DNA of 64,000 bases, from the UHGV virus genome UHGV-1353888; one strand, given 5' to 3'. The position numbers and the translations under genes were made by a program. Source of the stretch: a virus. Positions 42,469-61,800 of this stretch are shown in pieces (within the stretch, counting starts at the first letter, position 1; each line of letters opens with the position of its first letter). The notes under the pieces are model-generated. The model was given only the letters and a program-made list of their open reading frames with translations, was not told the origin of the DNA and did not search any database.

Positions 42469-42491
42469 AGAACCTCTATTCTACCACAGTT

Positions 42492-45382: not shown

Positions 45383-45738
45383 TAGATTAAAGAAGGGGTT
45401 TAAGGGATTTATAAATACTGGAATTAACCGCGGCGGGATAAATATGTTTGACTATTTTGGTAAATCCCATTGCTGGTTTAACGCTAGTCTGAACAAGAAA
45501 CTTTGTACTTCTCCTGGAGTATAACCTCTGCACATTAGCAGGATAGATTACATCGGGGAGGGTAGTGTTTACGTCAAAGGTAGAGTATAGATTCTTAATG
45601 TACGTAATGGCCTCTTCGAGCGAATAGGTCTATAGCCATCCTTAGCCGTCAAGAGCAAATCGTAGGTTAAGTATTTTTCTTCTTCGTTCATATGTCTTAC
45701 TATAGTATGTGATTTTTAAATGTCGAGATTATTTTTTG

Positions 45739-46536
45739 TCATTCTCTTTCAAGAAACTTAATCTCGTCGTATTTTGATTTGACTTTTTCAAGGAAGGATT
45801 TGAGCATAGTTCTTTCTAATTTGGTAGCCGTCCTTGGGAGCCTAAAGTGATTCAGGGTTTGTCCTGTATGTCCTTTCTTTCCAGAGTTCTCATTAACAAG
45901 AGATACCATAACAGGAATACGGGAGGTGTTGCTTACCCTGAAATAGGTGTGTTGGTCAGGTGTCCCGTTAATATCTACAAAATTTATATCCTCAATCCTT
46001 TTCATAACTTCCTCCAATGTTTTGAAGATACTACTCTCGATAGCTTGGGAAGATGTGGTCGTTTCCCTGTAGAAAGTGAGAGCATACTTGTCTTCTAGCT
46101 GTAGATAATGCACGGAGAAGGTTACATGGATTCCATTATCCTTACGGTTTTCCCTCTCAATAAAAGCCTTGGTTTCATCATATAGTTCGGTTACTTTCAG
46201 CCATTCGTCAAGAGAAGGAGGGCCCTCCTGGTATTCACCTATGAATACTTCGAGTTGTCCTATGTCGCTAAGACAAAGCTCAACCAGAACATGAAGATTC
46301 TTAAAACGAAGGAATTCTTTGGTGGCTTCTATCTCGCTTCCATATGTACAAAAAGTAATGAGGTTCCTGCTCTTGCAAAACTTAATGACATAATCCAGTT
46401 TCTTATGGCTTATAATCCCCAAAACTTTGAAGGAATACATGGCGGAAGAAGTCGTCTCTTCGGTTGCTACCCCCACATACTTTTTTGATTGGGGGTGATA
46501 GTACAGGCCAAAGGTAATGTGTTTCAAGTTCTTCAT
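45739..46536 (-). CDS. Two-domain fusion homolog of the paralog family
   Basis: Start at the internal ATG (MKNLKHITFGLYYHP...KYVGVATEE). A second domain, IHVTFSVHYLQLEDKYALTFYRE...KTLEEVMKRIED, also matches the family pattern. Confidence 0.45.
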   Translation of the reverse strand: MKNLKHITFGLYYHPQSKKYVGVATEETTSSAMYSFKVLGIISHKKLDYVIKFCKSRNLITFCTYGSEIEATKEFLRFKNLHVLVELCLSDIGQLEVFIGEYQEGPPSLDEWLKVTELYDETKAFIERENRKDNGIHVTFSVHYLQLEDKYALTFYRETTTSSQAIESSIFKTLEEVMKRIEDINFVDINGTPDQHTYFRVSNTSRIPVMVSLVNENSGKKGHTGQTLNHFRLPRTATKLERTMLKSFLEKVKSKYDEIKFLERE

Positions 46537-46541
46537 TTTAA

Positions 46542-47123
46542 TTATAGGGGCATTCTTGAAACGATGGTGAGTTCCTTGGAAAGAATAACGGAGGCCCATG
46601 AGAGGCGCATATACTTTGCAAGTTCCGTCAGGAGGTTGAGGCTCAAACAAGCGGTATTTCCAAGCCGTCTTTCGGGCTCTACTCCGTTCTTGTCCAGACT
46701 GATACTAAGGTGAAGAGCAAGGAAAGCCAGGGCCAGCTTTGGAAGATTCTCACATTCCTTTAGAAGGCTTGCCACCTGCTTTTTGTCCAACGTTGAATAA
46801 GAACTCCTGTTCTCCATGTCAATACCATGGCCGTGAATCTTGGCAAGGTTTTTATTGTAGCAATGCAAGGCGCGGGTGAATGAAGAGTTGAATACATGGT
46901 TCAAGTCCTTCCGGTGTTCACTACAGAACTCAATGGGGTTCTCAACCCGGCACAAAGTAATAGCATCCTGAATCAGAAATGCCTTAGAAGTTGCGGGAAC
47001 CATAAGGCCAAACAATACATTTTCAGGCGTTGTTTTTTCAGTATAGGCCCGTTCAATAAGAGCCTTGCTGGTTCCTTCTTCGGTAAAGGTGAATTCGTTT
47101 TCGGAAATATTATCGTTCATCAT
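46542..47123 (-). CDS. Hypothetical protein
   Basis: 193-aa ORF. Confidence 0.4.
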   Translation of the reverse strand: MMNDNISENEFTFTEEGTSKALIERAYTEKTTPENVLFGLMVPATSKAFLIQDAITLCRVENPIEFCSEHRKDLNHVFNSSFTRALHCYNKNLAKIHGHGIDMENRSSYSTLDKKQVASLLKECENLPKLALAFLALHLSISLDKNGVEPERRLGNTACLSLNLLTELAKYMRLSWASVILSKELTIVSRMPL

Positions 47124-47286
47124 TTTTGTATAGGTTATTAAGTAGGTTAATGTTGCTTTTAGGATTCTGTAGTTGCAGGATGGATTTTCTAAAAAATAGA
47201 ATGAGGGCTAGGCTAGCTGGAATCAATACCGCCAGAATGGACATGAATGCTATTAACAGTAGAACCAAGAAAAGAATCTTCATCAT
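47110..47286 (-). CDS. Small hydrophobic membrane peptide (58 aa), translationally coupled at both ends
   Basis: MMKILFLVLLLIAFMSILAVLIPASLALILFF.... Its start overlaps the upstream stop (ATGA) and its stop overlaps the downstream start. It is below the 60-aa cutoff of the ORF track. Confidence 0.4.
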   Translation of the reverse strand: MMKILFLVLLLIAFMSILAVLIPASLALILFFRKSILQLQNPKSNINLLNNLYKNDER

Positions 47287-47861
47287 AGAGTTATCTTGCT
47301 TGTGTCAAGTTTGTTCTTCAAATAATCCAGTTCACGGGGGGTTAACTTGTTAAATTGGAACACCTTAATTCTTTGTTCGTCAAGCATAAGAGGCTCTTTA
47401 TCATTAACAATAAGCCTTCTCTCCTTGTTGAGGGGTTTCCGGGTTATGGTGTTGATTTGTGAAAGAGTCCGCATAGCCACCCCGAAAGATTGCGCTTGAA
47501 AATGCCTGATTATTTTGTAAGTTGTACTATTATAAATCTGGACATACAATTTAGAGTCAGGCAAGCGGTGAATGCTGAAACTCTTTTCCGGAGACATAGG
47601 CGTAATTTGGTAGTCAATAATTAGGGAATCCCCTTCACGGACTACAAAGCCGTCAGTCAAATTCTCCAGCATTAAGTGCGCCATGGAGATAATGCAAGGT
47701 ACTGGATTGGCAAACCACACTTTCATTTTGTAATGGCAATTATATTCAGTCTTCATCTGCGTGCAACTAGGACCATATACCCTCACATCCTTACTACTGA
47801 AATAACAGAGGGTTAGAAGTTGAGACTGCCATGCACGAAGGCAGTTCATTTTATTTGTCAT
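47283..47861 (-). CDS. Hypothetical protein
   Basis: 192-aa ORF. Confidence 0.4.
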   Translation of the reverse strand: MTNKMNCLRAWQSQLLTLCYFSSKDVRVYGPSCTQMKTEYNCHYKMKVWFANPVPCIISMAHLMLENLTDGFVVREGDSLIIDYQITPMSPEKSFSIHRLPDSKLYVQIYNSTTYKIIRHFQAQSFGVAMRTLSQINTITRKPLNKERRLIVNDKEPLMLDEQRIKVFQFNKLTPRELDYLKNKLDTSKITL

Positions 47862-48144
47862 AATTTTTATTGAGTAGGCTATAAAGTTCTGTCCAGGTTT
47901 TTACTTCGTTGATAAGTTCCTTTTTGAAGAAGGCAACCCTTGCATAGGTTGGAGTGGCGATTAAGACCGCCATGCGGTGAGGTGAATGAAAAAGCCGTCT
48001 CTGAAATGTGGGGAAGAGTTCTTCCCTGTTAATGTGATAAAGCTCCACATAGACCACGGGAAAGGCATTGGAGATTTGTTTTTCTCTGCTCTCCTTCTTC
48101 CGGAACCCTATGCTTTCAAGCTCTAAAATGTAGCCGTCAATCAT
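47851..48144 (-). CDS. Hypothetical protein
   Basis: 97-aa ORF overlapping its neighbours by a few nt. Confidence 0.4.
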   Translation of the reverse strand: MIDGYILELESIGFRKKESREKQISNAFPVVYVELYHINREELFPTFQRRLFHSPHRMAVLIATPTYARVAFFKKELINEVKTWTELYSLLNKNYDK

Positions 48145-48818
48145 TTTGCAAAGAAGTTAGACGTTGACCGGATATAGGGGCGGGTATAGTGCAGTCTCAT
48201 GCTAGGGTAAACTTCCTTTTCCAATACGTCTTCCAACTCATAAGAGCTTTTCAAAACTTTCTGAATAAGGACTTTGGCTTTTTCTACCGCTTTAGAATGG
48301 TTCTTGAAAGCTTCTTCAATCTTGACAAGCTCACTATTCACGAAGTTTATGCACTTGTCCAGTTCCGTTTTAAAGTTAGGGTTAAGCCGTCCATTTTGAG
48401 AAGTGGTAATACCCTCCAGAACATACCGTTCATAACGGGAACTCCATGTGTCTTCCCCGTAAATATCCTTAACTCCGGTAGGGAGCATGACGCGCAGGGA
48501 AATAGCGGGGAAGAAGGTGCGTGAAGAATAGTTGTCTACGCTTCCCGGAGCAAGGACGCTTGCCCCTCTAACATAATCATCTCCTCGGAAGTGCCTATTG
48601 AGAATATGACTAACATTACTCCAATCCTTTTCCCTCATAACCTTAAATTCGCCTGACTTTGTTTTAAAATCTGGACTGTCAAAAACGACTTTGAGATATT
48701 CAAGTGCATCCTTAAGCCGTTCATAGAAATATTGAAGTCCTTTCAAGTCACGCATGGCATTATCATCTTCTTCAACGAATTTCCGAATAAAGTAGTTCAT
48801 CATATCATTATTATTCAT
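48141..48818 (-). CDS. Hypothetical protein
   Basis: 225 aa, preceded by the conserved leader AAATAGAAAGACAAAAAGAAATG. Confidence 0.45.
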   Translation of the reverse strand: MNNNDMMNYFIRKFVEEDDNAMRDLKGLQYFYERLKDALEYLKVVFDSPDFKTKSGEFKVMREKDWSNVSHILNRHFRGDDYVRGASVLAPGSVDNYSSRTFFPAISLRVMLPTGVKDIYGEDTWSSRYERYVLEGITTSQNGRLNPNFKTELDKCINFVNSELVKIEEAFKNHSKAVEKAKVLIQKVLKSSYELEDVLEKEVYPSMRLHYTRPYIRSTSNFFAK

Positions 48819-48850
48819 TTCTTTTTGTCTTTCTATTTTTGTTTGTAGTT

Positions 48851-49543
48851 TTAGAGATTGTAGAATTTAATATATTCTTCCCTGCTTTTAAATGTCCTCA
48901 CCTTCCCCCCGTGACCGTTGTATACGATTGTTTCAATTCCTTCGCCATTCGAACGGTTGTCATAAACATGAATAGTAGAGCCGTCTTTTAAAGTAAAAGC
49001 CGTAGCAATTCCCTTATACTTAGGGTTTTTACGGGAGACTACACTGCGTGCGAGGTTGTAATTAGTATACACACGCCCCATTTTTTGAGGCCACGGGTAT
49101 GGGGTGCTATCCAGGCTCATAAACACAAGGTCCATGCCGTTAGGATAGGAAAAGAAGTCCCATTTTTCCGGAGCTAGTTCGGCATCCCATTTGACTAGGT
49201 GAGTTAGCGAAAATTGGAACTGTGCATAGAACGGAACCAAATCCTCAAAGGCGAAAAGGAAACGTGCTCCCTGCTCAATAGCGTACTTAACCATTTTTTT
49301 ACCAAATCCTTTCCCCCGGAATAGGTGAGAGACTATGAGGGAAACAAGTTCCCCCTCCGCGGTTATCGAAAATACTCCGACGATGGAGCCGTCATTTACT
49401 AGCCTGAAACACTTGCATCCATTATCCCTGTACCAGTCACCGGGGTAAACGTCAACATGTGCTTTCTCCATGTCTGACAGATAATGGCGCAGTTCCCCTG
49501 CAAGGCTCTCCATTGCATAAGGATTTATCTTTTCAATATACAT
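48851..49543 (-). CDS. GNAT-family N-acetyltransferase domain protein with a C-terminal extension
   Basis: GNAT motif A: IVGVFSITAEGELVSLIVSHLFRGKGFGKKMVKYAIEQG (R-G-x-G-x-G). A C-terminal domain of about 100 aa is uncharacterised. Conserved leader upstream. Confidence 0.55.
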   Translation of the reverse strand: MYIEKINPYAMESLAGELRHYLSDMEKAHVDVYPGDWYRDNGCKCFRLVNDGSIVGVFSITAEGELVSLIVSHLFRGKGFGKKMVKYAIEQGARFLFAFEDLVPFYAQFQFSLTHLVKWDAELAPEKWDFFSYPNGMDLVFMSLDSTPYPWPQKMGRVYTNYNLARSVVSRKNPKYKGIATAFTLKDGSTIHVYDNRSNGEGIETIVYNGHGGKVRTFKSREEYIKFYNL

Positions 49544-49665
49544 TTTCTTTTGTCTTTCTATTTGTTGTGCCGGACGTTTTGGCCTCCGGCTCGCCTTACA
49601 TGAACAGTTATACCATAGGAGCGGGGAAAAACAAGACTAATCTTTTTTGTCTTGTGTCATACACC
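49544..49665 (-). promoter_or_regulatory. Repeated promoter-leader module, copy F (divergent)
   Basis: Contains CTTGTGTCATAC (the - strand reads GTATGACACAAG) about 115 nt upstream of the ATG, plus the leader AAATAGAAAGACAAAAGAAAATG. Confidence 0.45.
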
Positions 49666-50476
49666 AATTAAACGCCGCTTTACCTTGTTCAGAAATGGCC
49701 CATGGACTAAAAGAACGGTGGACAATACGGGGGCGGGTAACCACTTCTGCTAGAATACATCCATCTTCTTCCGTGCTTTTATCACAATTGCATGGCATAG
49801 GGGTTCCCTTGCATTCTCCTCCCCTGTTTTTACGAATATGGCTCTCATAATCCATTGTTAGTAGCAATTCCTTTAACTCTTTCATGGCCTTATAATTATG
49901 GAAAGGGTAAGCCATTCGCAAAGAGGTAGAGCTAAAATTCTCTGACTCTAAATAGATTGTGAGATAAAACTCCTTATTCTCCGTGTTTTCCGTAACGTGT
50001 GCAGTATACACGGCTTCCTCACCCTCCAAAATGTTCACAACGTCAGCCTCATACTCAATATATTGAGTTTCATGGAGTTCTTCCGTTTTTGCAGGTTGTT
50101 TCGGAGCGTCCTTAACGGGCGTAGCGTACACATCAACCGTTGCACAGGGGAGGCCAAAACAGGGATATTGATTAAAAGAATCCTCCGTTCCCTCAATTTC
50201 GACAATTACCTTCCATTCAGCGCGGAAATCGTCAAGTTCAGCGCGGTCTTCCTCGCTAAGTTCGCCTTCATCATCTCCATACCCCATTAAATAAGGGAAT
50301 GCCCATTGAGGAACGCCCTCAACCCTTTCGTAACTGTCTGACGTTTCGTCCATTTCGGTCAATACAAGATAGGTACTTCCGCAATGGGGGCATAGTCCGT
50401 TTAGAGGCGTAACGCTTCGGTTATCGCATTCCATGCAGTCATATTTTTCGTTTTCGTCGATAATAACAGTGCTCAT
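49637..50476 (-). CDS. Hypothetical protein with an N-terminal Zn-ribbon (CxxC...CxxC)
   Basis: CMECDNRSV...CPHCGSTY, then an acidic domain. Conserved leader and promoter module upstream. Confidence 0.45.
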   Translation of the reverse strand: MSTVIIDENEKYDCMECDNRSVTPLNGLCPHCGSTYLVLTEMDETSDSYERVEGVPQWAFPYLMGYGDDEGELSEEDRAELDDFRAEWKVIVEIEGTEDSFNQYPCFGLPCATVDVYATPVKDAPKQPAKTEELHETQYIEYEADVVNILEGEEAVYTAHVTENTENKEFYLTIYLESENFSSTSLRMAYPFHNYKAMKELKELLLTMDYESHIRKNRGGECKGTPMPCNCDKSTEEDGCILAEVVTRPRIVHRSFSPWAISEQGKAAFNWCMTQDKKD

Positions 50477-50637
50477 TTTTCTATGTTTTCTATTTTAGTT
50501 TGTTGGTTGGTTGCGGGGTTGTGTTCCCCTTACGCAATCCTTTATATTATATTAGAGGGGAAACGCAAGGGAAATGTTCATGCCTTGTGTCATACTTAAC
50601 TGTTAAGGAGTTATGAAAATGTTCCACGTGGAACATT
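50477..50637 (-). promoter_or_regulatory. Repeated promoter-leader module, copy A
   Basis: Perfect 22-bp palindrome AAATGTTCCACGTGGAACATTT, then GTATGACACAAGG, then a TGCGTAAGGGGAACACAACCCC-type leader. Confidence 0.5.
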
Positions 50638-51207
50638 TCAGGCGATTACAGTCTTTTTGACGGATAAGGTCAAATGATAGCAGGGGGAAAAGGTTTCAGA
50701 ACTTATGTCATAGGAGCAGGTGGCCCGCAACTCTTCATGTTCTGCTTCAACCATTTCCGCTAGTTCGTTAGGCGAACAATCCAGAACAGGGGTGTACGCC
50801 TCAATCTTGGTGAGGAAAAAATTGGCTTTAATTTCTTTTATCTTCCCTCCATTCTTTTTAACAAGGTCTTCAACGGTGGCCAGAGCGGCGGTTAAAATTT
50901 CCTTTCGTTTGTCCTGCAAAATAGTAATGATTGCAAGGTCTTTTCCGTCAATGTTTTGGATGCGGGAACAGACAAGAAAACCTTGTTTATGCAGAGCATT
51001 AAGAGCTTTATCTCTCTTGTCCACCGGAACGGCAATGCGTCGAATGTTGTGCTCTACCTGCTTCTCCGTTGCTGATTGCAGGTCATAAACCTTACAACCT
51101 AAACCGTTTAGAGATTGCAAGATAATTTTTGATAATAAATCTTTAGGCATCTTTTTTAATAAGCCATGTTGTTTCAGTAGTTTCCCGGTCAAATCCAATG
51201 CTTGCAT
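50638..51207 (-). CDS. Hypothetical protein (start may be the ATG at 51150)
   Basis: 189-aa ORF. The alternative internal start MPKDLL would give an 8-nt overlap with the upstream small gene. Confidence 0.4.
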   Translation of the reverse strand: MQALDLTGKLLKQHGLLKKMPKDLLSKIILQSLNGLGCKVYDLQSATEKQVEHNIRRIAVPVDKRDKALNALHKQGFLVCSRIQNIDGKDLAIITILQDKRKEILTAALATVEDLVKKNGGKIKEIKANFFLTKIEAYTPVLDCSPNELAEMVEAEHEELRATCSYDISSETFSPCYHLTLSVKKTVIA

Positions 51208-51376
51208 AGGACGGCCCTACAAAGTCACTGACTTCACGGACGATTTTAACGTCTGGACCTGCTTTAGCTAAAACCCTTAATAGCAAGTTCTTTCCGGGTT
51301 TAAAAGAGAGTTCTACTTTTTCAACCTCTTCCCGGTTGTTCAAATGACTTAATGCTTCAAATAATTTCTTGTTCAT
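51143..51376 (-). CDS. Small hypothetical protein (uncertain)
   Basis: 77-aa ORF with an ATG start. Overlaps the downstream gene if that gene starts at 51207. Confidence 0.3.
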   Translation of the reverse strand: MNKKLFEALSHLNNREEVEKVELSFKPGKNLLLRVLAKAGPDVKIVREVSDFVGPSYASIGFDRETTETTWLIKKDA

Positions 51377-51381
51377 GTTTT

Positions 51382-51798
51382 TTATACGTTAAAGTTAAAG
51401 GATTTTTGAACATTTCTACCCTGTACAGTTACAGAGGTGAGGGCATACATTTTATACTGCAACATGTACGTGTTTTGTTCGGATTTTAAGGCCTGAATTT
51501 TGGAATCATACTTGTTTGTATTGTCAATCGCAATCTCTACCATGATACAATATGCAAACCACAATAGAGTTAAAGCACTTGCATAAACTCCAACAATACA
51601 AAAAAGTTCTGTTATGCTAGTCCCATTGTAAATTTTTATTGCTAAAATAACCACAAGAATAAAGGCAAGCCATGCGGAAATTCTTTCAAAGTTCAATCCA
51701 TCCAAGGCCCTATATATTCCCCTCCACCTTTTAAATGAGCGGGTGAGTTCCGAAATCTCACGGGCGTGAACAAAGCTAGCGTAAAAAGCGTATTTCAT
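51382..51798 (-). CDS. Membrane protein with two predicted TM segments
   Basis: AWLAFILVVILAIKIY and LFCIVGVYASALTLLWFAYCIMV. Confidence 0.45.
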   Translation of the reverse strand: MKYAFYASFVHAREISELTRSFKRWRGIYRALDGLNFERISAWLAFILVVILAIKIYNGTSITELFCIVGVYASALTLLWFAYCIMVEIAIDNTNKYDSKIQALKSEQNTYMLQYKMYALTSVTVQGRNVQKSFNFNV

Positions 51799-51803
51799 AA
51801 ATG

Positions 51804-52004
51804 TTAGAAGTTAAGGGATGATACAAAACGCTTCATTTCGGCGATTGAGGCACATTCAAAAGTTAATGCCGGGTTCCAGTTTGAGCGGAAAACATAGCCA
51901 TCTTCCTTTTTCTGGACATAGGCGAACGTAGAAATTAGCTCTTCCCGGTCATTCACAAAACTATTCTTCAACCTATCTAATGCTTCCATATCTGTTTTAT
52001 TCAT
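51804..52004 (-). CDS. Small hypothetical protein
   Basis: 66 aa. Preceded by the conserved leader and by a promoter module. Confidence 0.4.
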   Translation of the reverse strand: MNKTDMEALDRLKNSFVNDREELISTFAYVQKKEDGYVFRSNWNPALTFECASIAEMKRFVSSLNF

Positions 52005-52125
52005 TTTCTTATGTCTTTCTAATTTTTGTTGTTATTACGGGGTTGTGTCTCCCTTACGCATTTCTTTATACCATTTTTGAGAGAGGATGCAAGGAGAAAT
52101 GTTGAAACCTTGTGTCATACAGAAG
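52005..52125 (-). promoter_or_regulatory. Repeated promoter-leader module, copy B
   Basis: CCTTGTGTCATAC at 52108-52120 (overlaps the upstream stop codon). Leader GCGTAAGGGAGACACAACCCC...AGAAAGACATAAGAAAATG. Confidence 0.5.
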
Positions 52126-52324
52126 ATTGTGGTTCTTTCGGAACCGTTATCATGCCATACTTTTCAGGGTTGTAAAAGTCCTGCCAAGTGAGATACTCCT
52201 TGCTTTTACAATTGGGGCAAGTCTCCTCATTAAGGGGTACAAGTCCTTTCCATCCGCAACCATTGCACACAACGCAATCACCTAAGCCGAAATAAGTTGT
52301 AAATTCCATGGTGATTAAAGACAT
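52115..52324 (-). CDS. Small Zn-ribbon protein
   Basis: CVVCNGCGWKG...CPNCKSKEY. Its stop codon lies inside the GTATGACACAAG motif. Confidence 0.4.
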   Translation of the reverse strand: MSLITMEFTTYFGLGDCVVCNGCGWKGLVPLNEETCPNCKSKEYLTWQDFYNPEKYGMITVPKEPQSSV

Positions 52325-52581
52325 TCGATTACATGGTCACTTTCCGGAATGCGGAGAATGGGAACAGGGGAATCATCCAAATTTTCAATGTCATACTCTT
52401 CCAAAAAATCTTTAATGGGGTATTCTAAAAACATGAGTTTTATGTCCATTAGGGATAACGCTTCTCCCTGCATTTCTTCAATATATTCAAAAATAACTTT
52501 GGCCCCCATAGGGGAAAAATCACAACCCGCTTGAACTAAATAATTATGAAATGGTTGATAGCTATTTATTTTTAAATTCAT
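52315..52581 (-). CDS. Small acidic hypothetical protein
   Basis: 88 aa, with a conserved leader upstream. Confidence 0.4.
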   Translation of the reverse strand: MNLKINSYQPFHNYLVQAGCDFSPMGAKVIFEYIEEMQGEALSLMDIKLMFLEYPIKDFLEEYDIENLDDSPVPILRIPESDHVIECL

Positions 52582-52599
52582 TATTTTAGGTCTTTCTAA

Positions 52600-52929
52600 T
52601 TATTTTTTATTTTTCAGTCTCATTTTATATCCTTTCAAAACAAGCTTTTCAAGTGGTCCAGATATGATATAATAATTTCTATTTTCATCATTAATTCCGG
52701 AGTGAAAAATATAGTTCCCGGATTGGCCATTCTTCACTAGTTCTTCCTCAAAAGCTCTAAGAATTAGAAGAGTATACCTGTTTTTATCTTCGGCAATCTT
52801 CCTAGCGTTAAAACCTGTAACGGCGTTCCAATCTTCCCACTCTACAATATGCCCTTTAAGGTATACAGGCTTTAAATTTAACTTGCTTGCACGGATAATG
52901 CCAGATGGCGTTTTTATAGTTGTTTTCAT
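52600..52929 (-). CDS. Hypothetical protein
   Basis: 109 aa, with a conserved leader and a promoter module upstream. Confidence 0.4.
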   Translation of the reverse strand: MKTTIKTPSGIIRASKLNLKPVYLKGHIVEWEDWNAVTGFNARKIAEDKNRYTLLILRAFEEELVKNGQSGNYIFHSGINDENRNYYIISGPLEKLVLKGYKMRLKNKK

Positions 52930-53039
52930 TTTTCTATTTTATGTTGGAGAAATGCCCCTTACGCAATCCTTTATATAATATTAGAGGGATTATGCAAGGA
53001 AAATGTTCATGGCTTGTGTCATACTTAACTGTTAAGGAG
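52930..53039 (-). promoter_or_regulatory. Repeated promoter-leader module, copy C
   Basis: A roughly 100-bp stretch nearly identical to copy A: ATGTTCATGNCTTGTGTCATACTTAACTGTTAAGGAGTTATGAA. Confidence 0.5.
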
Positions 53040-53378
53040 TTATGAAGAAATATATGATTCCAGCATGCGGGGGTGCGTGGTAAATTTCAGCTCTCTCCCT
53101 TCATAAATGATAAAGCCTTTTATGGTGCTGTCCTGATTCATCCTTCTTTTTAACTCCACAACTAGCTCAAAAAGAACGGTATGCCCACATAAACACCACG
53201 CTAGCAGGGGGTGAGTTACAAAATCGCCCGCCTCATTTTGAGTAACCGGGCAGATACGTATAATATCTCTGTCATCATTTTCATCATATAAGTCCCAGAA
53301 CATAAATGTGTTATCATACACAACACATTCCTGAAAAATGTCTCTCAATTCCTGCAAATATTCACTCACTTCTTTCAT
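53040..53378 (-). CDS. Hypothetical protein
   Basis: 112-aa ORF. Confidence 0.4.
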   Translation of the reverse strand: MKEVSEYLQELRDIFQECVVYDNTFMFWDLYDENDDRDIIRICPVTQNEAGDFVTHPLLAWCLCGHTVLFELVVELKRRMNQDSTIKGFIIYEGRELKFTTHPRMLESYISS

Positions 53379-53392
53379 TTTCGTATTCCTTT

Positions 53393-53704
53393 CTAAGCCA
53401 TAAACTTACATAATTCCCGCTCATTTACTCTCACAACACTATAACCATAACGGGAGGCCATTAGTTCCACGCCATTTTGATGATTCCGTGTCGTCAAAGA
53501 GTATTTTTCATCGCTAAGGTATACTATTTTAGTACAGTCATCCTTGTAAGCGATTGGCGTTAGATAGCTATACAGGACGGATTCTGAAAAACTAAGGCGA
53601 ATAACGGTGCCGTAAGTGTAACTGGATTCACATTTAGGAGATTTTCCTTCCTGCTTTTCTCCGTCAAAATACTTTTTCAAAAGGTCTTCAATGTATTTTC
53701 TCAT
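53393..53704 (-). CDS. Hypothetical protein
   Basis: 103-aa ORF. Confidence 0.4.
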   Translation of the reverse strand: MRKYIEDLLKKYFDGEKQEGKSPKCESSYTYGTVIRLSFSESVLYSYLTPIAYKDDCTKIVYLSDEKYSLTTRNHQNGVELMASRYGYSVVRVNERELCKFMA

Positions 53705-53756
53705 TTTTCTTTAAGATTGCGGACGGGAGAACCATTATCTCCCGCCCTAATTGTTA

Positions 53757-54150
53757 TTAACCAAGATAAGCTTCTTTTCCAGCGGCCCCCATTTCGGAAT
53801 AATTAATGTCACGCCAAAGACCATGATTAGGTTGCACGTAGGTTTCATCTATGACATTGCAAGTTCTGAACAATTTGGAGTCTTCGTAACCAATGTCCAT
53901 GTTTTCTTTGTTAAACCTAAGCACGATTCCTTCCCAATTTGTAAAATCTTCCAAATCCTCAATGCAATCCTTAATATCGAAGGGTTGAACATCAAAACAA
54001 ATACCCCGGATAAGCGCGGAATTTTCATCCTCCGTGTAAATCGCAATATGCAACCTCCCCCCCGCTATTATCTTCGTAAACCCTGTAGGTATATGCTCCT
54101 TTGCACAATTCATCAAGGATAATCACTTCATCATTCATTTCTTTGTTCAT
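53757..54150 (-). pseudogene. Gene split by a frameshift at a C7/G7 homopolymer (54057-54063). It is either a sequencing indel or a genuine frameshift or slippage site.
   Basis: The ATG at 54150 sits 100 nt after the promoter motif and opens MNKEMNDEVIILDELCKGAYTYRVYEDNSGG. That frame stops just after the G7 run. The 119-aa track ORF 53757-54116 continues in another frame from the same run. Confidence 0.4.
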
Positions 54151-54263
54151 GATATTGTATATTTTTATTAGTTGTTGTGCCCCCTTCTTGGGAGAACAAG
54201 GTCAATTTAGCATAGGGCACATGTTATGCAAGAAAAAACTTCATCATTTTTGTCATACTAGCT
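54151..54263 (-). promoter_or_regulatory. Repeated promoter-leader module, copy E (degenerate)
   Basis: TTTTTGTCATACTAGC variant about 100 nt upstream of the ATG at 54150. Confidence 0.4.
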
Positions 54264-54536
54264 TTAGTGTTGCACGTCCCTTACTTCGTAATAACGGGGT
54301 AAAACAATGACTTGTGAGGTTTCTTTCTTAAAGTCCATGTAACAGGGGTTCAATCTGTCTAAATTATCTCCTAAATCAATATTCTCAATGAGTTGACAGA
54401 GATTATCCCAATTTATAATACCGTGAGTAAATCCTAAAAACGTTCTCTTTCCCTCCTTAGAGTCATAAACGGCAAGCAAAAAACTTCCTTCCGTTCTGTT
54501 TTCAAAAATTTGATACTCCTTTTCTGCTTTTTTCAT
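54264..54536 (-). CDS. Hypothetical protein
   Basis: 90 aa, with a conserved leader upstream. Confidence 0.4.
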   Translation of the reverse strand: MKKAEKEYQIFENRTEGSFLLAVYDSKEGKRTFLGFTHGIINWDNLCQLIENIDLGDNLDRLNPCYMDFKKETSQVIVLPRYYEVRDVQH

Positions 54537-54573
54537 TTTCTTATGTATTTCTAATTTAATCTGTTATAAATAT

Positions 54574-54819
54574 TCAGGGCCTAATCTCTTCGTGAGTTTT
54601 ATACACGGCCCGCCATGAAGATGAAGAAGCGTCATAAATCACAAACCCAGAATAGCCGGACTTGTTAAGGGTATTTCTTCTTTTCAATTCTTCCCATGCG
54701 TCCATTTTAAGGCGAGATAAAGTGTGTCGTCCATCATCATAATAAGAGTCTGTACTTCCGCAAATAGGCATGATTCTTCCAGATAAATCTGGCTTGCAAA
54801 ATGTAATTACTGGCTTCAT
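54574..54819 (-). CDS. Hypothetical protein
   Basis: 81-aa ORF. Confidence 0.4.
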   Translation of the reverse strand: MKPVITFCKPDLSGRIMPICGSTDSYYDDGRHTLSRLKMDAWEELKRRNTLNKSGYSGFVIYDASSSSWRAVYKTHEEIRP

Positions 54820-54841
54820 TTTATTATTATTATTTAAGGGT

Positions 54842-55147
54842 TTATACTAAGTCGATAGCGCGTAAAAACAAACGCTTGTCATGGTCAAAATAGGTCCACC
54901 CGTACTTTCCGGGGTTATATCCGATTACTTTCCGGTTCCCGTGTATCTGGTGAGGCATCCATTCGACACTGATATTTTCCTCCCCTACCCCGTGGATGAC
55001 GGCATGAGTTCCTTCCTCCATCAATTCCCGGAGGGTTCCGAAACGGACAAAACTGCGGGCAACTTGGTAGTGTGTATGACCTTCCTTTTTGCAATACTCT
55101 TCTGCAAACTTATGCAGGCCCTTGCTTGGTTTTTGTATGATTATCAT
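54842..55147 (-). CDS. Hypothetical protein
   Basis: Start set at the ATG (MIIIQKPSKG...), preceded by the leader GGAAAGACATAAAACAATG. The track start was a TTG lying in the leader. Confidence 0.4.
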   Translation of the reverse strand: MIIIQKPSKGLHKFAEEYCKKEGHTHYQVARSFVRFGTLRELMEEGTHAVIHGVGEENISVEWMPHQIHGNRKVIGYNPGKYGWTYFDHDKRLFLRAIDLV

Positions 55148-55166
55148 TGTTTTATGTCTTTCCAGT

Positions 55167-55388
55167 TTATTTTCCAAGGGATATTTTAGTAAGGGCCTCC
55201 CTCATTTTCTCCATGCTAGCGGCGTATATAAAATGACGCACAAGGGGAGTTGCATCCGTGCGGGTTGCAAGATAACCTAACCCTGTTTTATCAATCCAAT
55301 AAGGCACTGATTCCAGAGTTATCCTTGCCCCTTCTGCCCCTAATTTTTCCAGCTCCAATAGTGCTTTTAAATCGTTGGATGTTAACAT
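55167..55388 (-). CDS. Small hypothetical protein
   Basis: Start at the ATG (MLTSNDLKALLELEKLG...). The upstream part of the track ORF is an in-frame translation of the conserved leader (KIERYKKM). Confidence 0.4.
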   Translation of the reverse strand: MLTSNDLKALLELEKLGAEGARITLESVPYWIDKTGLGYLATRTDATPLVRHFIYAASMEKMREALTKISLGK

Positions 55389-55534
55389 TTTCTTGTATCT
55401 TTCTATTTTAGTTCGTTGCTTGGTTGGTTGTAGGGTTGTGTTCCCCTTACGCATTCTTTATAGCATCTTTGAGCAGGGGAGCAAGCTTTTTCTTTTAGGC
55501 TTGTGTCATACAAAATTGTCCCACGTGGAACTTT
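55389..55534 (-). promoter_or_regulatory. Repeated promoter-leader module, copy D
   Basis: Near-palindrome GTTCCACGTGGGAC, then AATTTTGTATGACACAAGCC, then the leader GCGTAAGGGGAACACAACCCTAC...AAATAGAAAGATACAAGAAAATG. Confidence 0.5.
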
Positions 55535-56227
55535 TTATCTCTCCGCATGTTCTTTTACCTTGTCACGTTTAACCAACGGCAAGACGGGAGGAAACACCCC
55601 GCTTGCGTAGTCCTCCCGGCTAACTCCCTGCCAAGCATAACCTTTGTATGTAGGCTGACGGCGTTTTACTACGTTGTTAATTCCAGCCGCTAACCCCTTT
55701 ACCGCCCGCGCCGCTTCCCAGTAACTAGGATATATGGTGATAGGCTCCAGGGTTTCCCGGTTTATCTGCATGACGGGCCGCGCGGATTTGTGCAATCCCT
55801 TTTCAATGTTCCCCTTCAATGTCTTTTTCCGTTTTTTCACGCAGTTACCGTAACGTATGTTTTCCCGGTGAGTACACCATTGCAGATTCTCCGCACGGTT
55901 GTTCATGGGGTTTTCATCTAAATGGTTTACATCTAACTCGCTTATTTTGTACCCTTTAAGATGCGCGCCTAACGGCACAAACGCACCTGCAACAAGGCGA
56001 TGAACATAATATTTATAGTGCCATCCTCCCTTTTCATCCAGCAAGGGAACATATTTATAACCGTTCCGGCTAGTCTGGATGCGTAAAAGCCTGTTGACAA
56101 GCTTGCTCCACACCGCGCCCATGTTACTCACAAGGTACAATTCCCTGCAACCTTTCAGTGGTACAGGTTCCCACAGTTCCCCCGGTCTGGTACATTCAGC
56201 CAGTGTCTTCTTCTTCATCTTCTTCAC
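55535..56227 (-). CDS. HNH homing endonuclease (NUMOD4 plus HNH_3 plus C-terminal DNA-binding region)
   Basis: N-terminus ELWEPVPLKGCRELYLVSNMGAVWS (NUMOD4-like). HNH core HRLVAGAF...VNHLDENPMNNRAENLQWCTHRENIRYG. C-terminal IYPSYWEAARAVKG...YKGYAW, which resembles a NUMOD1 or IENR-like module. Confidence 0.75.
   Translation of the reverse strand: MKKMKKKTLAECTRPGELWEPVPLKGCRELYLVSNMGAVWSKLVNRLLRIQTSRNGYKYVPLLDEKGGWHYKYYVHRLVAGAFVPLGAHLKGYKISELDVNHLDENPMNNRAENLQWCTHRENIRYGNCVKKRKKTLKGNIEKGLHKSARPVMQINRETLEPITIYPSYWEAARAVKGLAAGINNVVKRRQPTYKGYAWQGVSREDYASGVFPPVLPLVKRDKVKEHAER
55535..56227 (-). mobile_element. Free-standing homing endonuclease gene (a selfish mobile gene)
   Basis: The HNH/NUMOD4 architecture is typical of phage homing endonucleases. 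It sits at the head of the early block next to the non-coding origin-like region. Confidence 0.5.
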
Positions 56228-56412
56228 TTGTCAATCCCTTTCCTGCTTTTAATCCCTTTCAATTTCTCTCCTAATTCTTTAAGCCGCGCTTCCTCTTCCG
56301 TAAGCTTTCGATTTCCCTGCTTAATCCCTCGGTTTATGCGCCTAAAATCCTCGGAGAGTTTATCCAGTTTCCGCCTCAACTCTATAAACTGTTCGGTACT
56401 GTTAATTGCCAT
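56224..56412 (-). CDS. Small coiled-coil protein (first gene of the - strand block)
   Basis: 62-aa charged helical peptide. Overlaps the HNH start by 4 nt. Confidence 0.35.
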   Translation of the reverse strand: MAINSTEQFIELRRKLDKLSEDFRRINRGIKQGNRKLTEEEARLKELGEKLKGIKSRKGIDK

Positions 56413-56869
56413 GTCTCCTTTATATAGTAGGCACGCCGTTTTTCAAGCTTTTTGTGCGCCATTTCCCCGCTTTTCAAGCTTTTTACAGTGTACCGCAATT
56501 GTTGCGTTAGCCCTAAAAACTGCACCATTACTGTTACTTCTGGCTTTCTTTGGACTTTCTCCCGAAAATCGTCGCACAGAAAGGGGCCTAAAAGGGCCTT
56601 TTGAGCAGGGAGCCTTACTATTATACCCGGCGATTTTGCCCGCCCGTATACGCAAACCTCATGCGTTTTATTTTCGCCAATTCCGCACTTTTCGCCCTAA
56701 ACGTACTAAGTGCACCTAAAATGGTACATAAATCCTCCATTCGTAACGGAAAGAGTACTATTCACTTTTTATACAACTGTATACATTCTAGAAAGAATAC
56801 AACGTTGTATTCTTTTCGTACCGTTATAGGTACTGGTTCGTACCATTTCCGTGCTATACGCCCTAAACG

Positions 56870-57095
56870 GTCTTCCCGTTCGTGTAGGGAGTAACGGGCA
56901 TTTCGTCCTTTTCGTTCGTGTAGGGAGTAACGGGCATTTCGTTCTTCCGTCCTTCTGGTCCATGTAGTTCGATTAGGGCGTGTAGTGCGTATAGCTCCAT
57001 CCTTTCAGTCCCTATAGTTCGATTAGGGCATTCCGTTCACTTCGTCCTTTAAGTCCGTATAGTGCGTTTAGGGCATTCCGTTCACTTCGAGCGTT
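56870..57095. repeat. Iteron array. Two 36-bp-period direct repeats (CGTTCGTGTAGGGAGTAACGGGCATTTCG) and two roughly 45-bp repeats (TAGTTCGATTAGGGCATTCCGTTCACTTCG), all with a TAGGG(C/A) core.
   Basis: Direct repeats at 56877-56905 and 56913-56941, at 56975-56989 and 57016-57030, and at 57027-57045 and 57071-57089. Inverted GCCCTAAA copies at 56510, 56693 and 56857, and GCCCTAA(A/T) at 58228 and 58649. Confidence 0.7.
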
Positions 57096-57100
57096 TCGAG

Positions 57101-57118
57101 TTTTACATTTTTGTAAAA
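57101..57118. promoter_or_regulatory. Palindrome TTTTACATTTTTGTAAAA, copy 1
   Basis: Perfect inverted repeat. A second copy lies at 57441-57460. Each is followed within about 40 nt by GTTTCCTATTGACCCCTT. Confidence 0.5.
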
Positions 57119-57440
57119 TATCAACATATCATGATGTGTAAATATGTTGTTTCCTATTGACCCCTTCACTACATATCAGGGCATATAATGGGAGAGACAC
57201 ACTATATGTAGTGTTCTCTGCTCTATCAGGCACCAATCATTTTGACGAATATCAAAATGTAAAACTAAAAATTTATACGTTTGAGAGGTTTTGTATAAAG
57301 ATTATATACACTTGTATACAAAGTGAGAGTAAAAGGTATTTGTTTCCCATTGGCACCATACATCATGTAGTGCCTATTGGTTACGGGAACACTACATACA
57401 GGAGTCATGATAACATATCTACATATCATGATATGATGAT

Positions 57441-57460
57441 GTTTTACATTTTTGTAAAAC
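57441..57460. promoter_or_regulatory. Palindrome GTTTTACATTTTTGTAAAAC, copy 2
   Basis: Perfect 20-bp palindrome, followed by CTGTTTCCTATTGACCCCTT as in copy 1. Confidence 0.5.
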
Positions 57461-58239
57461 TAAAAGGAGAGAAGCCCCTTCTGTTTCCTATTGACCCCTT
57501 TATATTTCAGAGCAGGAAAATTCCAACACTCCGGACTTCACGCACTAAACGCCCCTTTACGTTCTAAGTCAACACGTTACGCATATCCGCAACCGATTAG
57601 GCATTACAAACGTTTCTCGAAATTATCTCTTAAAAAACAAATGTTATTTCATAGTACGTATTGATTATTAGGGACTTACGTTTTCAATGTCGTACATAAA
57701 CGTAATGATAATATTAGTTCAGAAAGGTACGCTATCGGCGTAGAATACAATAAGCCCCCTGAAAAAGGTACTTGAATCGGTGCATTTCGGACGGAAAAAT
57801 CGCTTAGAACGTGAAGGGCACCACGACGGTGACTCCCCCTTCGAGCGTAACGCGCTCATTAGTAAATCATTAGGTCACATTTTTCCGGAAATGGGGTTTC
57901 TGATTTTTCAAAATGGGTCCCATGCCGAGGGGACACCACGGGTCTCGATTGCCTTTTCCTGCTCCGGCGTGGGCCTAAAATAGGCGAGAGGGGGTACGTA
58001 TGGACAGACTGTACGTGAACGGGGGTGTGAGGGGCCTTCTATGGGCCTACGCATAGGTGAGTGCGGTTGAGGTCATTTAGCCCGGAAGGTCCATATTGGG
58101 ATGGAAATTCCTGAACTATTTTCATAACTGCCTCAGTGATAATCATTTTATGGAGCAGGGAAGTCCAAATAATCCGATTGTGTGATGATGTGTATATTTT
58201 GAATACGAGATAACTTCACTCTCCAGGTTACGCCCTAAA

Positions 58240-58893: not shown

Positions 58894-61800
58894 ATGAACC
58901 CCGTAGAATACGATAAGCCCACTTCGGGCGGTACGGACCTGACCATTGTAGCCTTGTCTGCTCAGTCATGGTCCACCTGTTATAGACGGAATACAGCCCG
59001 CCGAGCCCATGTGGGGAGTTGTAAAAACCCCGCACTTCTCCCATTTTCCAAGCTGGCAAGCTTCCTGCAAAGCGGAGATAACCATAATCTTTCCCTGCTC
59101 GAAGAAGTAAGCAATCAAATTTCAGTACACTACTGTATCTCAAATGGTATTAAACCTGACGAAGTTGAGGGCATTTTGCCGGACGGGGTGTACAGTTATG
59201 GCTTGAAAAGCTTGAGCGGGATGGAAAAAGAGGAGGCGGCGAAGATTTCAAAAGCCCACCTCCCGGCTATTGTCCCCTCTGTTATTTTCGACCCTTCCTA
59301 CAGCTATGCCGACATGTCCCCGAAGAAAGCCGTCTCCTACTACGGCGAAAGCTGGAAGCATACCGGGGTCTTCGGATTTGACATTGACCTGGGCAAGGAT
59401 GGCAACACGGACGATGCGGACGAGTTGTACGATATGGGCGTTTCTTTCTTTTCCACCCTGCCGGGCTTCCTGCTCCTGTTCCGCAGTCCCAGCGGTGGAT
59501 TGAAGGTGCTTATACAGGTAGACGGAGCTACGCGGGTTCGGTTGAACGAAGGTAGCAACGAAGGAAGGATAGCGTTGCACAAGGCCATCTACAAGCGGAT
59601 TAGCGAGGGGATTAACGAGAGTGCCCCCTTCGTGCTTGACTCCCGTACCAACGATGTAGCCAGGATTCAGTACCTTTACCGGGAACCGGGCTACGTATAT
59701 GTACCATCCGAATTAGATTCGAATGGTACATACTCGGGGTTGGGCCATTGGGATGCACGGGATATTTATGCGGAGAAGGATGCGGATTCCCTCCATTTGC
59801 TGGACGAAGAAAACCGAAAGGCTTTGCCTTCCAGCTTGTTGGGCTTTATATCCTACCTGCACGATACGGGCTACGTGAGCTACGCGGAGCACCTGGAAGG
59901 TAATCTCGTAGGGTATGCGGACGGGTTCAAGTGTTCCTGCCCCTGCTGTATTGAAGAAGCGGGAGGGCAGATAGGCAATACGGACTTGTGGTTCATACCG
60001 GGCGACGGGGACATGAATACGTGGAGAGTGACCTGCTTCCATGAGAGCTGTAAGACCGGGAAGGGCACTAAGACCGGGAAGGACATTACCAGCATGGCCG
60101 AGCTATACCGCGGGTATGAGAGCTATTTAAGCGAGAAGGTAAGCAACCTAACTAGCGAAGCGGTAGCCTCGGCGAAGGAAAAAGAAAAGGAGCCGGAAGA
60201 AGGGGAAGAAAATATAGCGTTCGATTACATGCGGGACTACATTACCTCCCTGCTCCAATCCAACAGCAAGACCCGTTACCGGGTGAACCCTCCTTACAGC
60301 ACTGAGCAGATACTTGAGGGCGCGAAGCCCTGGGCTGGCAAGCTTATCATGGAAGAATATACCGTGAAGAGCAAGGGCCGCCCGAAGAAGGGAGAAGAAG
60401 GAGAAGAGGGCGGCGAGAAGAAGGAAAGGCCCGCGATTTGCCGGGAGAACCTTGAAATCATCCTTGCTGAATGCTTTGACATCTTCGTTACCTACAATAC
60501 TGTTTCCCAGGAATACTGGGCGATTGATACCAAGAACAGGTACGTATCCAACTGCTATAGTATCGACCAGTTCCGGAAACCGCTGGCCTATGCTGTTCAT
60601 GAGTTCGTGTACAAGCCGTTCGGGGTAGCCTACGGGATGGTGGATGTTGAGCTTGAACGCGCCCTTCCAGTCATCGGCAATAGCCATTACTTCAATCCAT
60701 TCCTGAAAATGATTGAGTATGATGATTGGGATGGGAAGGAGGACCGGGTGGGGAGGTTTATTGACATCCTCATTTCGGCGGTTGACCCCTCGTGGAGCCT
60801 TGATGGTGGAAGCGGAGAACTCCTGAACAAGATAAAGGCTGACATCGCACGGGACCCGAAGGGGGCTGAGAAGATTGGTTTGACCGAAGCCCTGGTGGAC
60901 CCGAAGGAATACACGAGGGAGGTGATGAAGACATTCCTCGTTTGTGCCTACCGGAAATACATACATGGTTGCGAACCCCACATGTACACCAAGGCCGAGG
61001 AGCACGACAACATGTGCCCTGTAATTTATGGTGAGCAGGGGGTGGGGAAGAACACGCTGATTGAAAGCCTTGTTACCGTGCTTGGTGAAGGCTATCTGTG
61101 GAACCCTTCCGGCCTCCGTGACATCAGTGGGGATAACAAGGACAACAACATGAAGGCTTCCTCCTGCCTTATTGCCCACCTGGACGAAGTGGACAAGTAT
61201 ACTGAGGGGGAAGAAGCGATTAGCACGTTGAAGCAGGTCATCACGAGCAAGACCAACAAGATTCGTCTTCCTTTTGCCCGGCACTTGCAGGACCTCCCTG
61301 TAAAAGTCAGCTATATCGGAAGTACGAACAAGAGTGCTTTCCTGCTCGATGCCAGCGGAAACCGACGCTTCGCTACCATCATCACCAAGGGGGGCTACAA
61401 CATGAATGAAATCCAGTGGCTACGTGCTACCAACATCTGGCCTCAGGTAAAACGGATGGCGGAAGAAGACGAAAACGTAGGCCGCTACGGGTGGTACAAG
61501 CTACAGAAGATAACCGAGCATAACAACTCAACGAACGTAATGAGCGAAGGGACCGATGTGGCCTTACTGGAACTTCTGGTTGATGCCAGCGACATCATGG
61601 ATACCAAGGGCCACATTCTTCTTCGTCACGTTAGTCAGGAGTTCTCCAACTACACGACAATCCTGGAGACCCTACGCTCTATGCAAGGGTCTACCAAGCG
61701 TGTTACCCGGAACGATGTAATGAGATTTACGAACGACATCATCAAAAAGTACGAGTTGAGCGATAGGTCCGATTTGTACAAGAGGGTCCGAAAGACACTT

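Follow-up and report, generated by a model that had tools for sequence, protein, structure and literature searches.

Repeated Promoter-Like Modules at the Boundaries of Variable Accessory Genes in an Uncultured Phage Lineage

The Module Array and Its Setting

The window analyzed here is the whole 64,000-nucleotide stretch of the virus genome UHGV-1353888 and represents most of one phage genome, from a lineage whose genomes measure ~68–73 kb. It holds a rightward block of terminase and structural genes, a leftward block of ~45 small genes in AT-rich DNA and, beyond a repeat-rich non-coding stretch between these divergent blocks, replication genes on the plus strand, among them one for a VapE-type primase/helicase (Table 1). 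Past this gene, relatives also encode DNA polymerase A, a helicase and a PD-(D/E)XK nuclease. The subject of this work is an array on the minus strand of the leftward block, at 49544–55534, in which a composite module of promoter-like, leader and, in places, terminator-like parts recurs between small accessory genes. The content of this array differs in each genome that we compared, and the modules are where many of the differences begin or end.

An earlier note on this DNA counted six modules in the array, and six are indeed present: five carry an exact copy of a 12-mer, GTATGACACAAG, and one (copy F) carries a degenerate copy, GTATGACAAAAA. The window as a whole has six exact 12-mers, all on the minus strand, against 0.16 expected by chance. 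The spacing of the parts is highly regular, with the 12-mer followed on the minus strand by 15–16 nt, a TTGnnn hexamer, 16 nt and TATAAA, copies F and E departing from this at the −10 with TAAATT and TATAAC, respectively. The −10-like hexamer is often preceded by TGn, as in an extended −10, and the pattern TTG-N18-20-TATAAAG occurs six times in the window, on the minus strand only (0.5 expected). Between copies A and C a stretch of 92 nt is 92% identical (50526–50617 and 52955–53046), and the genes flanking the two copies belong to different protein families, in agreement with the earlier description of near-identity over about 100 bp between unrelated neighbors. Also as described, the 12-mer overlaps a coding end twice: in copy B it contains the TGA stop of the open reading frame (ORF) at 52115–52324, and in copy E it lies within the last codons of the DUF6926 gene (ORF 49637–50476).

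Other parts are less uniform than was first thought. A core, TGCGTAAGGG or (T)GCGTAAGGG, follows the −10 in copies A, B, C, and D only, copy E having ATGTAAGGCG in its place and copy F lacking it, so that a conserved segment in every copy, as had been claimed, holds for four of the six. The statement that all copies have the same parts was overstated, the palindrome or hairpin being confined to copies A and D and absent from B, C, E, and F. Most copies finish with a CA-rich stretch and then the leader TAGAAAGACATAAGAAA-ATG. The longer form of this leader, TAGAAAGACATAAGAAAATG, has eight copies at up to three mismatches, where none would be expected, and in all eight, which are minus-strand sites from 48.8 to 55.4 kb, TAGAAAGACATAAGAAA abuts the ATG. 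The leader does, as noted earlier, end most modules, but it is also a separate element, since five of its eight copies precede genes with no module upstream. It lacks an AGGAG or GGAG Shine-Dalgarno core, and Shine-Dalgarno sequences are nearly absent across the genes of this genome, including those behind modules. Similarity among the copies nonetheless extends beyond the leader, as the 12-mer, the −35-like and −10-like hexamers and the core are all shared. The array lies within the range first given for it, although related sites also occur outside, at four places in the window (Table 1).

Table 1. Coordinates of the modules, related sites and other features in the window
Feature	Position	Strand	Parts or remarks
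Module D	55386–55534	-	terminator-like palindrome GTTCCACGTGGGAC 55518–55531 and T run; 12-mer 55500–55511; TTGCTC 55479–55484; TATAAA 55457–55462; core GAATGCGTAAGGGG; CA-rich leader; ATG 55386–55388
Module F (degenerate)	54148–54258	-	12-mer variant GTATGACAAAAA 54247–54258; TTGCAT 54226–54231; TAAATT 54204–54209; hairpin-capable TGTTCTC/GGGGGCA; ATG 54148–54150
Module C	52927–53043	-	block ATAACTCCTTAACAGTTAA 53025–53043; 12-mer 53013–53024; TTGCAT 52992–52997; TATAAA 52970–52975; core TATAAAGGATTGCGTAAGGGG 52956–52976; short leader; ATG 52927–52929
Module B	52002–52120	-	12-mer 52109–52120; TTGCAT 52087–52092; TATAAA 52065–52070; core; leader TAGAAAGACATAAGAAAATG 52002–52021
Module A	50474–50638	-	perfect palindrome AAATGTTCCACGTGGAACATTT 50617–50638; ATAACTCCTTAACAGTTAA block; 12-mer 50584–50595; TTGCGT 50563–50568; TATAAA 50541–50546; core; CA-rich leader; ATG 50474–50476
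Module E	49541–49662	-	12-mer 49651–49662; TTGTTT 49629–49634; TGgTATAAC, hexamer 49607–49612; hairpin-capable GCCGGA/TCCGGC 49569–49590; leader 49541–49560
Exact copies of GTATGACACAAG	40450, 49651, 50584, 52109, 53013, 55500	-	
Leader copies without module	48816–48835, 52579–52598, 53376–53395, 54534–54553, 55145–55164	-	
Related site outside the array	40404–40499	-	strong terminator-like hairpin 40470–40499 and T run; 12-mer 40450–40461; 7 nt; TTACAT; TATAGT ending 40416; ATG 40404–40406
Related site, structural block	3023–3110	+	terminator-like hairpin 3023–3041 and T run; GTATGACACAAC 3052–3063; 6 nt; TTGATA 3070–3075; 16 nt; TGgTATAAC, hexamer 3092–3097; ATG 3108–3110
Related site	15005–15072	+	GTATGACACAGA 15018–15029 in the 13-nt loop of an 11-bp terminator-like hairpin 15005–15039; TTGCTT 15036–15041; 16 nt; TATCCT 15058–15063; ATG 15070
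Related site	62318–62425	+	hairpin TATACGCATA/TATGCGTATA; GTATGACAAAAA 62345–62356; 15 nt; TTGAAA 62372–62377; 17 nt; TAGGGT 62395–62400; hairpin CTGTTC/GAACAG; ATG 62423
Promoter-like, without 12-mer	56418–56446	-	TTGAAA-N16-TATAAAG; upstream of the 62-aa ORF and the HNH gene
Promoter-like, without 12-mer	57498–57526	-	TTGGAA-N16-TATAAAG, spacer holds CCTGCTC; start of the leftward block
Breakpoints relative to relatives	55386–9, 54825–32, 54517–36, 54135, 53712, 53396, 52956–76, 52925, 52032–81, 50616–40		
HNH/NUMOD4 homing-endonuclease-like gene	55535–56227	-	directly upstream of module D; same position in 7/7 genomes
62-amino-acid (aa) ORF	56224–56412	-	near the HNH gene
Rightward block	1–39115	+	terminase 528–2351; structural genes; 3284-aa ORF
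Leftward block	39234–56227	-	~45 small genes, AT-rich DNA
Repeat-rich non-coding stretch	56.3–58.9 kb		between the divergent gene blocks
VapE-type primase/helicase gene	58894–61914	+	replication gene
CCTGCTC, examples	55471–55477, 56603–56609, 57510–57516		
GCCGCGGC sites	1500, 8327, 12735, 16711, 27264, 30944, 31394, 34349, 62049		palindromic

Gene Content of the Array in Related Genomes

Seven genomes were compared, all public assemblies of uncultured phage: the window and the relatives L087, L093, L098, L099, L101, and L103. The relatives were found by look-ups of exact-protein clusters, which led to near-complete genomes of 62–73 kb from ENA, JGI, and Logan. IMG/VR provided one relative only, and further protein look-ups returned only contigs ending short of the module array. 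More than 20 near-complete contigs of the lineage exist, and the samples in which it occurs include ERZ28585990 and SRR7057628. The names of the samples suggest that the lineage comes from gut metagenomes. Matches to a pattern of 12-mer, TTG, and TATAA in metagenome and genome collections (54 + 29) were rejected as relatives and are put down to chance, as none resembles the window by blastn.

The flanks of the array are 97–99% identical among the relatives, while the ~5 kb from the HNH gene to the DUF6926 gene has seven gene contents in seven genomes (Table 2). Gene order is collinear and never permuted; what varies is the presence, absence and allele of individual genes. In the window, modules C and B enclose genes I, J, and K. 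The exchange of cassettes expected by the earlier note is therefore found among close relatives, within a conserved order. The cassette genes are ORFan-like, with no Pfam match and two weak PHROG matches to families of unknown function.

Table 2. Genes from the HNH gene (A) to the DUF6926 gene (O) in seven genomes (letters denote protein families, listed in the direction of the genes)
Genome	Genes	Remarks
Window	A B C D E F G H I J K L M N O	
L087	A B C H L M N R O	
L093	A D E F G H S T I J K L M N O	
L098	A B C E G H S T V G' I J K L M N	
L099	A B C D E F G H	contig ends at module C
L101	A B C L M N O	plus an 81-aa gene after C, dropped by the ORF filter
L103	A L M W N R O	W is a 77-aa ORF, dropped by the overlap filter in other genomes

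Assembly artefact was considered as the source of this variation and rejected, because the variants contain unique genes, because some junctions share only 13–21 nt of exact sequence, and because the L087 arrangement recurs, with 15 further similar places among 21 contigs carrying the same DUF6926 protein. Assembly does leave a mark of another kind: the Logan contigs L094–L096, L099, and L105 stop at module A, C, or D or no more than ~150 nt away from it. Repeats of ~100 nt thus appear to break short-read assemblies, and public assemblies probably under-represent or fragment this region.

Junctions and Mosaic Modules

Relative to the window, ten breakpoints were placed among these genomes, all of them intergenic, with six lying in modules and the rest at or near the starts of downstream genes (Table 1). 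The same 21-nt core of module C, TATAAAGGATTGCGTAAGGGG, takes two different insertions, one of 565 bp in L093 (genes S and T) and one of 1.3 kb in L098 (S, T, V, and G'), and in L093 the sequence on either side is 99.7% identical. The promoter half of module D is joined in L103 to gene L through the shared sequence CTAAAATAGAAAA, with the loss of ~3.3 kb, and in L101 leader copies at 54.5 kb and 52.0 kb are joined, the 54534–54553 copy being the deletion junction. In both L087 and L103 a 100-aa gene separates module A's palindrome from its 12-mer block, and it is exactly at module A that the identity of the window to L087 drops from 98.3 to 84.6%. At the junctions, the matches to the two parental sides overlap by 13–88 nt of shared sequence.

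The modules are themselves mosaic. Their 5' halves are of D-like, A/C-like, B-like, E, and F types and their leaders of alpha, beta, gamma, and delta types, and these combine widely: alpha, gamma, and delta leaders follow D-like halves, all four follow A/C-like halves, and beta and delta follow B-like halves. A D-like half is found before four different genes, and the 66-aa gene L has four different leaders. Because all four combinations of two 5' types with two leader types exist, crossovers in the shared core are required. Crossing over made use of shared blocks, namely ATAACTCCTTAACAGTTAAGTATGACACAAG, the core surrounding the −10 and the leader's 3' end. Module sequence is also conserved above that of neighboring genes: module E of the diverged L101 matches that of the window at 82% identity, against ~55% for the coding DNA just upstream, and keeps GTATGACAC, TTG, TATAAC, and the leader.

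Crossovers fall in at least four places in the module, namely the upstream block, the core, the leader and the palindrome, which counts against an integron-like or site-specific array of the kind that the earlier note also brought to mind, in which the 12-mer or the palindrome would be cut by a dedicated recombinase or nuclease. Such an array has some appeal, as an unvarying, asymmetric 12-mer points the same way at cassette boundaries, a CACGTG-centered palindrome stands at two boundaries, and the 100-aa gene of L087 and L103 sits between palindrome and 12-mer block. Integron arrays likewise have one-directional small accessory genes, variable content and a recurring boundary element. However, Pfam, PHROG, PDB sequence, and motif searches found no integrase or other recombinase domain in the ORFs scanned, the neighbor of the array being an HNH gene; there is neither an attC-type folded site nor a single crossover point; and every module, and so every cassette group, brings a promoter-like site with it, as integron cassettes do not, with an asymmetric 12-mer and palindromes at two boundaries only. 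The integron-like reading consequently fails on several counts and we regard site-specific exchange as highly improbable.

Predicted Promoter, Terminator, and Leader Signals

The hexamers, their 16-nt spacing and the frequent TGn fit a sigma70-family promoter, as judged from consensus and conservation. The −10 is without its final T, and a generic sigma70 scan accordingly left the modules unlisted. The Bacteroidota-type promoter TTG-N18-20-TAnnTTTG occurs 0 times in the window against 2.4 expected, and the modules are therefore not of that type. The searches named above detected no RNA polymerase, sigma factor, or regulator in the ORFs scanned, which makes transcription by the host polymerase the most economical reading.

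The palindrome of module A could form an RNA hairpin of −11 kcal/mol (z −4.6); at 40.4 kb the hairpin reaches −26 kcal/mol (z −5.1). Each is followed by a T run, and the two look like terminators. The palindrome of module D shows a compensatory T-A to C-G change in L103, with the copy in the window as a G.U intermediate.

Downstream of the core, a short GC hairpin of at least 4 bp is possible in 11 of 17 unique leaders, compared with 10–15% of random 40-nt windows. It is conceivable on these grounds that the stretch after the −10, TGCGTAAGGG plus hairpin, is a 5'-leader RNA element, either a stabilizing stem-loop or a nut-like antitermination signal that would carry transcription past the terminators between cassettes. 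Its position just downstream of the promoter, with terminators between cassettes, would suit such a role, as would the hairpin that differing sequences in types E, F, and delta form at one common position. Folding of the leaders bears out their hairpin potential but gives no covariation to go with it: RNAalifold finds only two invariant pairs. A count of pairs was no better than in shuffles. Single hairpins reach z values of only −0.9 to −3, beta-type leaders pair over only 3 bp, and Rfam 15 over 39–59 kb yielded two chance-level matches (E about 0.9), none of them at a module. An RNA element thus seems improbable.

The 12-mer and Its Possible Factor

The 8-mer core of the 12-mer, GTATGACA, is over-represented in its own right, with 17 occurrences against 2 expected. 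It is found directly after, or in the loop of, terminator-like hairpins at 3052 (+), 15018 (+), 40461 (−), and 62345 (+), and each of these four sites has a TTG...TA hexamer pair downstream. The gap between 12-mer and −35 falls into two classes, 15–16 nt or 6–7 nt, about one helical turn apart, which would suit an upstream element, or an activator site, lying on a single face of the helix. It is possible, though we put it forward only tentatively, that the 12-mer is the binding site of a phage or host factor controlling terminator–promoter junctions across the genome (the six modules and the sites at 3.05, 15.0, 40.4, and 62.3 kb), acting from two helically phased positions before a non-canonical TTG-N16-TATAAAG promoter, with the modules as recombination hot spots. 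The core TGCGTAAGGG would then be a second promoter-proximal signal, for instance in initiation or antitermination. A literature search for the 12-mer met chance occurrences only.

In modules of the A/C type, a near-perfect palindrome, CTTAACAGTTAAG, adjoins the 12-mer (53025–53037 and 50596–50608, minus strand). One of its arms is mutated (GTGAAG) in L087, L098, and L101, and it may be a second protein-binding site.

A stronger proposal would give the modules to a phage-specific apparatus, such as a virion or phage RNA polymerase, a sigma factor or an activator, for which the 12-mer and perhaps the core would be the main recognition element and the TTG and TATAAA hexamers secondary. The 12-mer is far better conserved than the hexamers, being kept even in coding DNA and in L101; it stands at terminator–promoter junctions on both strands across the genome; the −10 is non-canonical; and the genome encodes a 3284-aa protein that has no assignment. 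The middle promoters of one crAss-like phage are likewise tripartite, with a third block beside −35/−10-like elements (bioRxiv 10.1101/2020.03.07.982082). Against this, no RNA polymerase, sigma factor or DNA-binding domain was recognized in the ORFs scanned, and two TTG-N16-TATAAAG promoter-like sites in the window have no 12-mer (Table 1). The two spacing classes also suit an auxiliary upstream element better than a core promoter. The 3284-aa ORF (28586–38440, plus strand) closes the structural block. Pfam, PHROG, and PDB sequence searches gave no match for it, and neither the two-barrel DFDxD motif nor a T7-like RNA-polymerase motif, marks of the virion RNA polymerases that use N4-like hairpin promoters or occur in crAss-like phages, was found in its product at the sequence level. 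We consider a phage-specific apparatus unlikely.

A Proposed Composite Regulatory and Recombination Module

Our preferred reading, in which we have good confidence, is that the modules are composite regulatory cassettes that work like the promoter-early-stem-loop (PeSL) elements of T4-type phages. Each would be a sigma70-family-type promoter, TTGnnn-16 nt-TATAAA(G), often with TGn and with the 12-mer 15–16 nt before its −35, followed by the core TGCGTAAGGG and a CA-rich leader without Shine-Dalgarno sequence that runs to TAGAAAGACATAAGAAA-ATG. The hairpin and T run before modules A and D and before their 40.4-kb relative would probably stop transcription arriving from upstream. The modules would thereby transcribe the small ORFan genes of the leftward AT-rich block, beside the probable origin, and we infer that they do so early and most likely through the host polymerase. 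As they repeat in direct orientation every 0.9–1.3 kb with ~100 nt of shared sequence, we propose that they also provide portable homology: homologous recombination between two modules of one genome would delete the genes between them, and recombination between modules of co-infecting relatives would insert or replace genes. The earlier note had foreseen both roles. Junctions and mosaic modules support that of recombination substrate, while that of promoter is drawn from consensus and conservation.

Several findings weigh against this reading. The stem-loop that defines a PeSL is present in only two of the six modules, and the hairpin of D taken alone is weak (z −1.3). The −10-like TATAAA lacks the conserved final T of TATAAT. 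Four of the arrangements are each known from one metagenomic contig. At least one event, the joining in L093 of the gene T end to the 12-mer at a 4-nt GACA microhomology with destruction of the first 12-mer bases, is a microhomology deletion and not an exchange between modules. Indels also occur in the module-free part of the leftward block, at 40.6, 43.7–44.7, and 45.5–46.4 kb, and the intergenic position of all junctions could come partly from selection against gene disruption.

Some of these points would suit another explanation, in which the modules are merely duplicated promoters and leaders with no special role, and the variation arises by illegitimate recombination, filtered by selection to gene boundaries, or by localized repair following cleavage by the neighboring HNH endonuclease. 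The microhomology junction and the indels away from modules are as it would have them, and the HNH homing-type gene always flanks the array. It sits poorly, however, with two independent insertions in the same 21-nt core, with the 13–88 nt of shared sequence at junctions, with module halves that combine freely and with the sharp step in identity at module A. We find this explanation quite improbable, though less so than site-specific exchange.

Comparison With Known Systems

PeSLs are ~100-bp cassettes with a strong sigma70-like early promoter, an AT-rich upstream stretch, a stem-loop terminator and a Shine-Dalgarno/ATG start; they lie between ORFans in hyperplastic regions, where recombination between them accounts for the indels that distinguish RB49 from phi1 and produces mini-circles (Arbiol et al., 2010, PMC2839356; Comeau et al., 2014, PMC4122927). 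The present modules resemble them, and the comparison made in the earlier note is upheld: a ~100-bp composite motif is repeated between ORFans, here six times in 6 kb; it has an A/T-rich upstream stretch, a TTGnnn and TATAAA(G) pair at fixed spacing that may be a sigma70-like promoter and, at its 3' end, a translation start with ATG; and indels and replacements between close relatives are bounded by the motif and leave chimeric motifs behind. There are also differences. A stem-loop is part of each PeSL and of only two of the six modules here; a conserved A-rich leader takes the place of the Shine-Dalgarno sequence; the invariant 12-mer and the promoter-proximal core have no PeSL counterpart; and the genome is one of ~70 kb and not that of a T4-type myovirus, with modules of different sequence. 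Given the unrelated phage, the stem-loop in two of six copies, the missing Shine-Dalgarno sequence and the novelty of 12-mer and core, the modules are not members of the PeSL family by descent.

Three further systems resemble parts of the array. The start-associated sequence (SAS) and extended SAS (ESAS) of Cluster K mycobacteriophages form a conserved motif, 3–7 bp from the ATG, with an AGGAG core (Pope et al., 2011, PMC3203893). Like SAS, the leader TAGAAAGACATAAGAAA is asymmetric, in one orientation and beside the ATG of a subset of unrelated non-structural genes, but it lacks AGGAG, is often part of a larger promoter module, and is a recombination junction, as SAS is not reported to be. 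Morons of lambdoid and HK97-like temperate phages are independent transcription units for accessory genes (reviewed in PMC3594210). The cassettes share with them a predicted promoter and sometimes a predicted terminator of their own, and accessory genes that lie between conserved genes and vary among relatives; here, however, the boundary is a repeated homologous module, and no lysogeny gene was seen in the genome. Lastly, the middle promoters of the crAss-like phage phi14:2, as described in the preprint cited above, combine −35/−10-like elements with a third conserved block, in a phage that has no Shine-Dalgarno sequences before its genes. No test made here marks the present genome as crAss-like, and its 3284-aa protein is without DFDxD.

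Megablast of the region against 50,697 cultured-phage records gave no match. TerL and DNA polymerase A have distant, non-T4 phage matches only, so that no family or host can be assigned.

Other Features of the Genome

No tRNA genes were found in the window. The non-coding stretch at 56700–57500 contains direct repeats of 34–67 nt (56842–57083), a 50-nt inverted repeat with arms at 57099–57148 and 57412–57461, and a 19-mer, TGTTTCCTATTGACCCCTT, in two copies, and is probably an origin with iterons. The most over-represented 7-mer, CCTGCTC, has 46 copies (29 on the plus and 17 on the minus strand) against ~7 expected, in coding and non-coding DNA as well as in the −35/−10 spacer of several modules; a Chi-like or an uptake-like signal would be candidate roles for it. 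The palindromic GC-rich 8-mer GCCGCGGC has nine sites, which make 18 over both strands against 0.5 expected on the same two-strand count.

Two observations concern genes of the leftward block. At 43297–45382 (minus strand) lie adjoining genes of ~111–120 aa, at least two of which share ~71% nucleotide identity; their number varies among relatives, with a 1-kb indel at 43673–44672 that involves no module. The 130-aa gene F of relatives (5743–6135 in L093) is split in the window into ORFs at 54025–54150 and 53757–54116 (minus strand), the likeliest candidate site being a run of seven G near 54060, through either sequencing error, a pseudogene or slippage.

Implications

Shuffling mediated by PeSLs has been described only in T4-type myoviruses, and the same logic now appears in an unrelated uncultured lineage of ~70 kb: one regulatory repeat would both express accessory ORFans and supply the homology by which these are gained, lost and swapped. 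The seven natural variants offer an unusually clean view of where the crossovers fall. The modules are also candidate promoter, terminator and leader parts for hosts that initiate translation without Shine-Dalgarno sequences, and the 12-mer provides a handle for finding its candidate binding factor. If the wider reading of the 12-mer were true, it would amount to a new system of transcription control in an uncultured lineage without Shine-Dalgarno sequences. More broadly, the likeness to PeSLs suggests that this mechanism is a general, convergent route by which virulent phages keep a pool of fast-evolving accessory genes.

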